Assembly: GCF_041248615.1 (NCBI RefSeq)
Contig: NZ_CP158426.1
DNA from: Escherichia coli
GTDB lineage: Bacteria; Pseudomonadota; Gammaproteobacteria; Enterobacterales; Enterobacteriaceae
Reading direction: 5' to 3' (one strand)
DNA length: 64,000 nucleotides
Each line of letters starts with the position of its first letter. Position 1 is the first letter of the stretch. Position numbers and translations under genes: made by a program. Under the pieces are notes generated by a model, which was not told where the DNA came from, did no database searches, and saw nothing but the letters and a program-made list of their open reading frames with translations. Positions 12,486 through 22,424 of the stretch are shown here, piece by piece.

Positions 12486-13496
12486 ATGTCACTCAAGGCT
12501 ATCGCCGCCGAACTCGGGATCTCTGTCACCACAGTCAGCCGGGCGCTTGGCGGATTTTCGGACGTTTCCGCTTCGACCCGTGCACGTGTAGAAGCGGAAG
12601 CTCGGCGTCGTGGTTATCGCCCGAATACCCTGGCAAGACGTCTCAAAACCGGTAAAACCGATGCGGTCGGCCTGGTCTTCCCTGAACATGCTGTACTGTT
12701 CAGCAGTAGTGTGTTTGTGGATATGGTCAGTTGTATCAGCCGGGAACTGGCCCGCCATGATATTGACTTACTGCTGATAGCCGATGATGAACGGGCTGAC
12801 AGCCACAGCTATATGCGTCTGGTCGAAAGCCGCCGGGTTGATGCCCTTATCGTGGCGCACACGATGGATAATGACCCGCGTCTTACACACCTGCAGGAGG
12901 CCGGTATTCCGTTTCTGGCACTCGGTCAGGTGCCGTCCGGTCTTCCCTGTGCCTGGTTTGACTTTGATAACCATGCAGGAACCTGGCAGGCCACACAGCA
13001 CCTGATTGCCCTGGGCCATCAGCGAATTGCCCTGCTGAGTGAGGACAACTCCCGTGCCTATGTCACTGCACGACGTCAGGGATGGCGCGATGCCCTGAGT
13101 GAACATGGTCTGCCTGAGACCTGGCTACGCCGGGTCTCTCCCACCCGACGCTCAGGTTTCCAGGCAGTGACTGAGTTAATGTCACTTCCGCTTCCCCCGA
13201 CGGCCATTATTACCGACAGTGACCTGATCGGTGATGGCGCGGCCATGTCGCTGCAGTTATCCGGTCATCTGTCCGGAGAGGATGCCGTCTCTCTTGTGGT
13301 TTATGATGGTCTGCCGCAGGACAGTATTATTGAACAGGATGTGGCTGCAGTTCTTCAGTCAACACGACATCGCGTCGGTCGTCAGATTGCCGACATGATA
13401 CGCCAGCTGGTCACGAATGTTTCACCTGAAATGCTACAAGTACTCTGGCAGCCGGAATTTCATCCTGGCAAGACAACGCTTGCTCCCTCCGCCTGA
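12486..13496 (+). CDS. rafR: LacI-family repressor of the raffinose operon
   Basis: 336 aa; N-terminal HTH MSLKAIAAELGISVTTVSRAL; immediately upstream of alpha-galactosidase/permease/invertase genes. Confidence 0.8.
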   Translation: MSLKAIAAELGISVTTVSRALGGFSDVSASTRARVEAEARRRGYRPNTLARRLKTGKTDAVGLVFPEHAVLFSSSVFVDMVSCISRELARHDIDLLLIADDERADSHSYMRLVESRRVDALIVAHTMDNDPRLTHLQEAGIPFLALGQVPSGLPCAWFDFDNHAGTWQATQHLIALGHQRIALLSEDNSRAYVTARRQGWRDALSEHGLPETWLRRVSPTRRSGFQAVTELMSLPLPPTAIITDSDLIGDGAAMSLQLSGHLSGEDAVSLVVYDGLPQDSIIEQDVAAVLQSTRHRVGRQIADMIRQLVTNVSPEMLQVLWQPEFHPGKTTLAPSA

Positions 13497-13518
13497 TTTT
13501 TAATCCCGCTCACAAATT

Positions 13519-13551
13519 CGAATCGTTTCGGTTGCTATCCGAAACGATTCG
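13519..13551. promoter_or_regulatory. Paired operator-like inverted repeat upstream of rafA (CGAATCGTTTCGG - 7 bp - CCGAAACGATTCG)
   Basis: Perfect 13-bp inverted repeat; each arm is itself a near-palindrome of LacI-family operator type. Confidence 0.45.
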
Positions 13552-13589
13552 GATCAACAGTAAGGCATACCCGAAAACGGAGATGTCTT

Positions 13590-20691: not shown

Positions 20692-22188
20692 ATGAAAAAA
20701 CACCTTCTCTCGTGTGCCATTCTGCTGGCCTGTTCCCCGGTCTTTGCGGCGGGGAATACCGACAGTATTGAAGCCCGGCTGGCGGCCCTGGAAAAACGGC
20801 TTCAGGATGCTGAAACCCGTGCTCAGAAGGCTGAATCACGGGCAACCGCTACAGAACAGCAGGTGCAGCAACTGGCCGCCACCCCGGCGACACAACCTGT
20901 TGTGCCACAGACCGTATCCGTACCACCGGAAAAGAAAGCGGACAATAGTGGTTTTGAGTTTCACGGCTATGCCCGCTCGGGTCTGCTGATGAACGATGCC
21001 GCATCCGGCAGCAAAAGTGGTCCGTATCTGACGCCTGCCGGAGAGACCGGTGGCTCGGTCGGGCGCCTCGGGAATGAGGGAGACACTTATGTGGAAACCG
21101 TGTTTGAGCACAAAAAGACGCTCGAAAGCGGGGCCACCACCCGGTTTAAGGTGATGCTGGCGGATGGTCAGAAAACCTATAACGACTGGTCGGCGAACTC
21201 CAGTGACCTTAACGTCCGCCAGGTGGTGGCTGAACTGGGAAATCTGCCGGACTTCACCGGGCCGCTGAAGCACAGTACGGTATGGGCGGGTAAACGTTTC
21301 GATCGTGACAACTTTGATATCCACTGGCTGGACTCGGACGTGGTTTTCCTCGGCGGAACCGGGGGCGGTATCTATGACGTGAAATGGAACGACACTCTGC
21401 GCAGTAACTTCTCCCTGTATGGACGCAATTTCGGGGAGATGGAGGATATCGATAACAACGTCCAGAACTATATCCTTACCATGAACCACTTTGCCGGGCC
21501 GTTCCAGCTTATGGTCAGCGGTATGCGGGCAAAGGATAATGATGACCGCAGGGACAATAATGGCGACCTTATCCATGCCAGTGCCGCCAGCCACGGTGTG
21601 CATGTGTTGGCCGGACTTCATAATGACAGTTTCTGGGGATTACGTGAGGGAACGGCGAAAATAGCACTTCTGTACGGGCATGGTCTGGGGGCGGAAGTGA
21701 AGGGGATTGGCTCTGACGGTGCACTACGCAGTGATGCGGATACTTGGCGTCTTGCTGCATATGGTACCACCCCGCTCGGAAACGGCTGGCATATCGCCCC
21801 GTCAGTCATGGCGCAGGGCAGTAAGGATCGCTATGCCCGTGGAGACAGTTATGAATGGGTGACCCTGAACACCCGCTTGATTAAGGAGGTGACGCAGAAT
21901 TTTGCGCTGGCGTTTGAGGGCACTTACCAGTACATGGATCTGAAACCTGAAGGGTATAAGGACCGCAATGCTGTTAACGGCAGTTTTTACAAGCTGACGT
22001 TTGCGCCCACCCTCAAGGCAGGAGGTCTGGGGGACTTCTTCAGCCGTCCGGAACTGCGTCTGTTCGCCACCTGGATGGACTGGAGCAGCAGACTGGATAA
22101 CTACGCCAGTGATGATGCTTTCGGCGGTAGCGGGTTTAATGCAGGCGGGGAATGGAATTTTGGCGTTCAGATGGAAACCTGGTTCTGA
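20692..22188 (+). CDS. rafY: Sugar-specific outer-membrane glycoporin (ScrY/RafY type) with signal peptide and N-terminal coiled-coil extension
   Basis: 498 aa; signal peptide [19 protein letters not shown]; LamB-family barrel ending ...GVQMETWF; raf cluster context. Confidence 0.7.
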
Positions 22189-22193
22189 ACACT

Positions 22194-22219
22194 AACGCTC
22201 CCGGTGTACCGGGAGCGTT
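22194..22219 (+). terminator. Perfect hairpin 6 bp after the glycoporin stop
   Basis: aacgctcccgg tgta ccgggagcgtt. Confidence 0.4.
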
Positions 22220-22424
22220 GCCGGTCATTGTCCCGTAAATGAAAGCGTTGTTCATCAATAGGAATTTAAACCCCAAAAAGATTAAAAAAACACCTGAAAA
22301 AGGGCGCTTTCTCAGCATCGTCACACATGCCATAACTTCGACGTCATCAATTAAATGGACTTCATTGATTGATACCGGGTATCGTGACGGGAGCCTGTTT
22401 AGGATTCTGTGTAAATGCCTTTTC

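Follow-up and report, generated by a model that had tools for sequence, protein, structure and literature searches.

A raffinose utilization module with a predicted RafR operator pair, carried on a tRNA ileX island of Escherichia coli

The 64,000-nucleotide stretch of Escherichia coli contig NZ_CP158426.1 (assembly GCF_041248615.1) analyzed here, hereafter the window, very probably carries a functional catabolic module for raffinose, melibiose and sucrose of the enterobacterial raf type, held as cargo on a genomic island at the tRNA gene ileX. The module begins with a putative repressor gene (rafR) and continues through rafA, rafB and rafD, which putatively encode an alpha-galactosidase, a sugar symporter and an invertase, to a paralog of the phosphotransferase system (PTS) gene crr (here crr′), a DUF2913 pseudogene, a fructokinase gene (scrK-like) and the glycoporin gene scrY. 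Between rafR and rafA lies an inverted repeat that sequence comparison supports as the twin operator pair already known for the raf operon, RafR binding itself being predicted. An earlier note on this DNA had described rafR-rafA-rafB-rafD with a "ScrY/RafY-type glycoporin" as the gene set classical for raffinose plasmids; the rafRABD order agrees with that description, but crr′, the DUF2913 pseudogene and the fructokinase gene, all three of them missed from the note's gene list between rafD and the porin, lie inside the cluster, and the porin is of the ScrY type.

The four raf genes are intact, co-oriented, full-length open reading frames (ORFs) on the plus strand, with no internal stops. By family assignment and comparison with known RafR, rafR (12486–13496) putatively encodes a LacI-family repressor of 336 aa, while RefSeq annotation and comparison with RafA identify rafA (13590–15716) as the gene of a 708-aa alpha-galactosidase. 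The third gene, rafB (15771–17048), putatively encodes a raffinose/oligosaccharide:H+ symporter of 425 aa from the RefSeq start, which we used here (the ORF lister's GTG at 15756 would give 430 aa), and rafD (17045–18475) a GH32 invertase of 476 aa. Among NCBIfam models, RafR fell with the LacI-family repressors, RafB with the oligosaccharide MFS transporters (TIGR00882, 679 bits), RafD with the GH32 hydrolases (TIGR01322, 445 bits) and the porin with the LamB family. One database source names RafD "raffinose invertase", and the RefSeq names for genes of the module are generic ("substrate-binding domain-containing protein", "MFS transporter", "carbohydrate porin", "aminoimidazole riboside kinase").

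A widespread plasmid raf operon (locus L002) was taken as the classical type for comparison, since UniRef names its proteins RafR and RafY. The window's proteins are equal in length to the classical ones and 79% (RafR), 87% (RafA), 88% (RafB) and 83% (RafD) identical to them, which bears out the rafRABD assignment of the earlier note, and the alignment to plasmid raf operons that it had proposed as a check also matched position by position through the operator region. Synonymous divergence (dS) from the classical genes was 1.0–1.5, so that synonymous sites are saturated, and the ratio of nonsynonymous to synonymous divergence (dN/dS) was 0.05–0.12 across the four genes (0.058 for rafA, 0.051 for rafB and 0.062 for rafD). 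Inactivating changes, which the earlier note had named as evidence that would speak against it, were absent from these four full-length genes. The allele thus appears to be an old, separately evolving one that is still under selection, and not a decayed copy. By megablast, the match to the plasmid raf operon spans only the stretch from the insertion sequence (IS) IS2 to the end of rafD, at ~80% DNA identity; the classical match ends at ~18438, and homology to all other raf operons likewise ends at the end of rafD. Coinciding with this end of homology to the classical operon, a GC-rich hairpin 3′ of rafD (18485–18505, plus strand; 9-bp stem, poor T tract, −16.7 kcal/mol, z = −2.55) may act as a weak terminator or attenuator.

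The inverted repeat upstream of rafA, CGAATCGTTTCGG/CCGAAACGATTCG (13519–13531 and 13539–13551), is perfect over 13 bp with a 7-bp spacer and is the sole perfect 13-bp inverted repeat with a spacer of at most 20 bp in the window; any perfect repeat of this kind appeared in 2 of 100 dinucleotide shuffles. Both the repeat and the near-palindromic character of its arms (2–3 mismatches between each arm and its own reverse complement) are as the earlier note had described them, and its proposal that they represent two RafR operators gains support from alignment with the classical sites and from the wide recurrence of the pair. The rafR-rafA spacer aligned unambiguously, with TCGAATCGTTTCGG-ttgctat-CCGAAACGATTCGG of the window standing over the classical CCGAAACGTTTTGG-ttgatac-CCGAAACGTTTCGG; homology therefore places the putative operators O1 at 13518–13531 and O2 at 13539–13552, with centers 21 bp apart, and the same block is present in three further E. 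coli and Klebsiella lineages. On the plasmid operon, RafR reportedly occupies two operators, one on either side of the −35 box, in work attributed to Aslanidis, Muiznieks and Schmitt in 1990 and to Muiznieks and Schmitt in 1994, and a 1990 paper by Aslanidis and Schmitt is also said to belong to the primary biochemical literature on RafR and O1/O2.

Conservation across species points in the same direction. A scan of one genome per species, with a five-sequence RafR alignment as the query, returned 80 loci, ~65 of which keep rafR-rafA-rafB synteny. At 53 loci outside the window lineage, including those of Klebsiella, Enterobacter, Raoultella, Dickeya, Serratia and Tolumonas (RafR 46–80% identical), two sites with at most 2 mismatches to CCGAAACGTTTCGG always lay exactly 21 bp apart. 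Most operator positions are invariant over these loci and the DNA further upstream is unalignable; the spacer between the operators always starts with TT(G), the beginning of the −35 box. A published RafR regulog likewise contains double sites only, 21–22 bp apart (PMC4052901). The RafR of the window has a recognition helix (SVTTVSRAL) and hinge identical to those of RafR proteins adjoining canonical operators, and Pectobacterium RafR-like proteins that have the helix SVAAVSRAL instead are accompanied by no CCGAAACGTTTCGG-type site, which is the expected link between protein and site. No additional RafR-type sites with 3 or fewer mismatches were found upstream of crr′, scrK or scrY.

Among RafR-like repressors encoded upstream of rafA homologs, the helix SVAAVSRAL occurs in Pectobacterium (L058, L060, L061, L063 and L069) and SITAVSRAL in Serratia inhibens (L070). 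The rafR-rafA spacer at these loci is longer (~217–273 bp) and without a CCGAAACGTTTCGG site, and these repressors presumably use a different operator.

The operators of the window lineage, in which we counted the Salmonella plasmid copy L009, differ from the canonical ones at three positions. Position 6 of O1 is A and position 9 of O2 is T in 52 of the 53 loci outside the lineage; within it they are T and A, respectively, so that in each operator the outer half-site has the base pair adjoining the central CG flipped from A:T to T:A, the two flips being mirror images across the −35 box. Position 12 of O1, usually T, is C in the window lineage, which removes the lone mismatch between the O1 and O2 consensus sequences. 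Each of the three changes preserves or improves the inverted repeat formed by O1 and O2, which is perfect over 14–16 bp in the plasmid copies L008 and L009 and reaches only 13 bp in the window owing to an extra C-to-T change at 13518. Copies within the lineage differ in the first base of O1: the window shares T with the chromosomal and PN43 copies, and C stands in L008 and L009, the two plasmid copies in which the repeat is perfect over 16 bp.

Residue 49 in the hinge of RafR is L in the window, Q in classical RafR and F in Klebsiella; it showed no co-variation with the operator change, L49 also occurring with canonical operators in Rahnella and others; given this and the unchanged recognition and hinge helices, there was no sign of co-evolving specificity. 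In LacI-family complexes, as in the LacI and PurR structures, the hinge helices contact this position from the minor groove, in which A:T and T:A look much alike; the swap is for this reason plausibly near-neutral for binding. Hairpin-templated (quasi-palindrome) mutation is one candidate origin of the paired changes. A broader scenario, in which the operator changes reflect either such mutation or selection for retuned symmetric contacts and crr′ in addition rewires inducer exclusion or cAMP signaling for raffinose uptake, is doubtful. The mirror-symmetric swap is an unusual detail of these operators and a modest curiosity.

Putative promoter elements of rafA are arranged around the operators. 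The −35 box TTGCTA (13532–13537, plus strand) lies between O1 and O2 and is homologous to the classical TTGATA, the TTG being conserved. A candidate class I site for the cAMP receptor protein (CRP) occupies 13496–13517, where a GATCACA block is almost invariant in 55 distinct upstream regions; its right half, TCACA (13510–13514), is perfect and its left half, TTTAA, degenerate, and its center falls ~61 bp upstream of the putative transcription start, which is predicted near 13567. Downstream of O2, a conserved ATCAACAG block stands where a weak −10 element would be and may mark its position. The pRSD2-type raf operon has the same layout: a TCACA half-site, O1, the −35 box, O2 at 21 bp, ATCAACAG and GGAG-ATG.

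Taken together, these features are consistent with regulation of the classical kind. The gene rafR would be expressed alone and, by homology, encode a repressor of which two dimers would occupy O1 and O2; with centers 21 bp (two helical turns) apart, both would sit on the same face of the DNA, and since the operators flank the −35 box of rafA, bound RafR would keep RNA polymerase out. Alpha-galactosides (melibiose or raffinose) would release RafR, after which cAMP-CRP at the class I site just upstream of O1 could activate rafA-rafB-rafD. Raffinose would be carried across the outer membrane by the ScrY-type porin, in the role that RafY has elsewhere, and imported by RafB; RafA would then remove galactose, RafD would split the remaining sucrose, and the linked fructokinase would phosphorylate the fructose. 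In this scheme we infer RafR binding, the inducer, CRP dependence, the structure of transcripts downstream of rafD and the role of crr′.

Several observations weigh against this interpretation. Both operators deviate next to the central CG from a near-invariant consensus, so that their affinity could be altered. The candidate CRP site has one good half-site only, and the −10 element, tentatively placed, is poor (CAACAG, at 17-bp spacing). Furthermore, transcription might or might not end at the hairpin 3′ of rafD, and the operator of scrY is a foreign one of the ScrR type for which the cluster encodes no cognate repressor, so that co-regulation of the porin, kinase and crr′ genes with rafABD is no more than putative.

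The module is IS-bounded cargo within a 48-kb integrase/tRNA-ileX island (~2752–51123). At the left boundary, a partial ileX copy (2705–2751, minus strand; 3′ half, 47 bp) was recognized by its match to 51124–51199 and forms the left direct repeat; at the right boundary stands ileX itself (51124–51199, minus strand; anticodon CAT), identified as a tRNA gene and the attachment site of the island. A P4-type integrase of the tyrosine recombinase family (2950–4266, plus strand) was assigned by its NF007246 domain and RefSeq annotation. In island-free genomes nfeF is joined directly to tRNA-Ile, the match to the window ending at ~2753, and in other strains the integrase backbone carries different cargo beyond ~10885. 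Integrase, tRNA gene, direct repeat of its 3′ part and an empty site elsewhere together mark a tRNA-associated integrative island. The chromosomal location given by the earlier note is confirmed by core genes to the left (aer-nfeR-nfeF) and to the right (tRNA ileX-mug-rpoD-dnaG); our literature search found no paper that deals with this island. Both the partial and the complete ileX copy are adjoined by an 18-bp direct repeat, ACCCATTACCTGACCCAA (2887–2904 and 51050–51067), which could belong to the att region or be left over from islands inserted in tandem.

The ISs that bracket the module were correctly recognized before as a deleted IS2 on the left and a nest of IS256- and IS629-type elements on the right. 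The IS2 copy (11063–12151, minus strand) has both terminal repeats intact and an internal deletion of ~242 bp that fuses orfA to orfB; the right boundary is a truncated IS1414 of the IS256 family (22391–23222, minus strand, with its end near 22391), which abuts an element of the IS3 family (IS629/IS1203-like) into which a group II intron has inserted. At 99.2% identity and with neither IS, the nine-gene module recurs on a Salmonella IncFII plasmid, homology running from 12152 to 22258. This arrangement could suggest that the raf module arrived as an IS-flanked composite transposon: the left breakpoint against the IS-free Salmonella copy falls exactly at the IS2 terminus (12151/12152), the island backbone holds other cargo in other strains, and two further raf lineages likewise have IS2 upstream of rafR. 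However, such an origin is unlikely, since IS2 and IS1414, both defective, belong to different families, the sequences flanking IS2 (GCCAT and TATAT) show no target-site duplication, and the 132 bp between 22258 and the IS1414 end (~22391) belong to neither the shared module nor IS1414. We therefore rejected the composite transposon; homologous recombination between IS copies, or IS-mediated deletion or fusion, fits the joining event better. The "IS-mediated capture" of the earlier note stands insofar as IS-associated recombination fits, but not as composite transposition, and the ISs bound only the raf cargo within the island.

The occurrence of IS2 upstream of rafR, in the same orientation, extends over three diverged raf lineages (2831–4059 in L002, 6812–8040 in L005 and 11063–12151 in the window), at distances from rafR of ~1000, 197 and 335 bp, respectively, which could reflect a recurrent insertion site or an ancient association. 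In the IS3-family element on the right, the reverse transcriptase/maturase ORF of the group II intron (24669–26192, 507 aa, TIGR04416) is apparently intact; in strain THO-010, whose region is otherwise identical, this ORF has an internal stop.

A second alternative concerns the operators. The repeat between rafR and rafA could function chiefly in RNA, as a hairpin that terminates or stabilizes the rafR transcript at its 3′ end, and not as a pair of protein sites, although we regard this as very improbable. The repeat does lie 22 bp past the rafR stop codon and would form a 16-bp stem of −23.4 kcal/mol (z = −7.3), in which the changes at O1 position 6 (A to T) and O2 position 9 (T to A) are compensatory and the change at O1 position 12 (T to C) turns a G·U pair into G–C. 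Yet no U tract follows the stem, and two near-identical palindromes yield an inverted repeat automatically. Moreover, 8 of the 16 pairs never vary over 42 distinct sequences, and two-sided changes occur at only 2 pairs, the Tolumonas one being explained by the symmetry of a single operator. Uncompensated changes were also found (at the same pair in L037 and L038, in 4 cells at columns 7/37 and in 6 cells at columns 16/28), so that the sequence is conserved as for a protein site and more than pairing alone would require, and only the operator model explains the 21-bp phasing and the enclosed TTG of the −35 box. Because the U tract is missing, half of the pairs are invariant and several changes are uncompensated, we treat the hairpin as a probable by-product of two similar palindromes.

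Least probable is that the module is a decaying remnant that no longer confers raffinose use, with its ISs and pseudogene as signs of erosion: two defective ISs do flank it, a frameshifted DUF2913 gene lies inside it and the scr regulon is represented by a fragment only (scrK and scrY without scrA, scrB or scrR), but full length is retained by all four raf genes, crr′ and the kinase and porin genes, dN/dS relative to the classical operon is low (0.05–0.12), the regulatory region is intact, and copies of the module with 99–100% identity exist in 183 complete genomes as well as on conjugative E. coli and Salmonella plasmids.

Of the genes between rafD and the porin, crr′ (18539–19054, plus strand) putatively encodes an IIA-Glc-like PTS protein of 171 aa with a PTS_EIIA_1 domain. 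It directly follows rafD, in an operon for a non-PTS sugar, and forms a long branch: among 5.8 billion proteins, the nearest relatives beyond its own cluster (at least 98% identical) share ~58–66% identity, and its identity to K-12 Crr is 59%. The protein is thus as distant from its nearest relatives as from the housekeeping Crr found in any gammaproteobacterium. It retains both active-site histidine motifs and most of the target-binding patch, in which F71 is L. Housekeeping IIA-Glc is said to inhibit RafB (Titgemeyer and colleagues, in 1994), for which reason crr′ could be a module-borne regulator that rewires inducer exclusion or cAMP signaling.

The DUF2913 pseudogene (19060–19636, plus strand) was recognized by comparison with its relatives and is split by a frameshift into 67 and 103 codons; the Salmonella plasmid copy shares this frameshift. 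Intact relatives, of 203 aa, occur in F-type plasmid backbones, adjoining ProQ/FinO genes, and this IncF setting hints at passage of the raf module through a plasmid on its way to the chromosome. The fructokinase gene that follows (19666–20592, plus strand, 308 aa) is ScrK-like, matching NF006957 at 477 bits, above the curated cut-off; its product is 73% identical to the kinase of the K88-type raf cluster and 69% identical to ScrK.

The porin gene (scrY; 20692–22188, plus strand) putatively encodes a sucrose-type glycoporin of 498 aa with an N-terminal coiled-coil extension. Residues 86–498 align to all 413 residues of the ScrY structure 1A0S in the Protein Data Bank (E = 8e-222) and residues 25–85 form a heptad-like segment; the porin is 76% identical to plasmid ScrY and ~80% identical to the crystallized Salmonella ScrY barrel. 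Likeness to RafY is limited to the N-terminal coiled coil (~30% over 73–92 aa), so that, of the two identities joined in the earlier label, ScrY holds by its barrel and RafY was rejected. ScrY, like RafY, reportedly passes raffinose and stachyose (Ulmke, Lengeler and Schmid, in 1997), and its replacement of RafY here would therefore make functional sense.

Control of scrY may differ from that of the raf genes. Upstream of it lies a perfect 14-bp palindrome, CTAAATCGATTTAG (20641–20654), which matches the ScrR operators of scr regulons. Genuine scrY promoters have two such 14-bp sites around the promoter (PMC11251922), whereas scrY here has a single one, and the intervening promoter segment is absent from the alignment. 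No scrR, scrA or scrB ORF was found in the cluster, nor a remnant of scrA after scrY. The gene could be transcribed constitutively, by read-through, or under ScrR or Cra acting in trans. Directly 3′ of scrY is a strong hairpin (22194–22219, plus strand; 12-bp stem, −24.1 kcal/mol, z = −3.9), and IS1414 follows.

Of 5426 complete E. coli genomes, 183 matched a 10.6-kb stretch at 99–100% identity by megablast, as did 9 plasmids. The rafR-rafA junction was present in 679 of the 5426 genomes, at 560 chromosomal and 198 plasmid places, and chromosomal raf clusters are therefore common and not unusual; a classical rafRABD-rafY cluster, for example, also occupies a chromosomal island adjoining a tRNA-Phe gene and an integrase gene. 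The analysis is mainly of value for annotation: about 3–5% of complete E. coli genomes have the chromosomal allele, and many of these come from poultry and pigs, animals in which dietary soybean raffinose has been proposed to select raf genes (PMC12987596, PMC12815263). Little of the biology is new, the raf operon, its repressor and its twin operators having been characterized since 1989–1994 and the double-site architecture already catalogued.

Comparison of these clusters shows that E. coli has at least three raf architectures: rafRABD-rafY, rafRABD-K-rafY (where K is the kinase gene; found on K88 plasmids and chromosomes) and rafRABD-crr′-K-scrY. With ScrY in place of RafY, the glycoporin has undergone non-orthologous replacement among them. 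The pRSD2-type plasmid operon shares with the window the order, orientation and lengths of rafR-rafA-rafB-rafD, whereas the window differs in a DNA identity of only ~80%, dS above 1, the operator swaps, ScrY instead of RafY, the crr′, DUF2913 and fructokinase genes after rafD, and its ileX-island setting. K88 (F4)-type clusters, on porcine enterotoxigenic E. coli plasmids and some chromosomes, resemble the window in having a fructokinase gene between rafD and the porin and IS2 upstream of rafR; they differ in having RafY as the porin (89% identical to classical RafY) and canonical operators, without crr′ or DUF2913. As in the scr regulons of pUR400, Klebsiella and E. coli plasmids, scrK and scrY are adjacent in the window, in the same order and with a ScrR-type palindrome, but the window has no scrA, scrB or scrR and one ScrR-type operator in place of two. 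Finally, chromosomal melibiose/raffinose loci of Klebsiella, Enterobacter, Raoultella and others have the same rafR-rafA-rafB synteny and twin operators at 21 bp; these loci differ in being core-genome-like, with canonical operators, RafR 65–70% identical to that of the window, and no rafD in the examined stretch.

The rest of the island (~27000–51000), by comparison with loci L001 and L003, contains a type I restriction-modification system with a DUF4268 gene, an Ag43-type autotransporter and a CP4-like block with antirestriction and YeeU/CbtA toxin-antitoxin genes. Somewhere within this same interval, the window is ~4.4 kb longer than strain THO-010.

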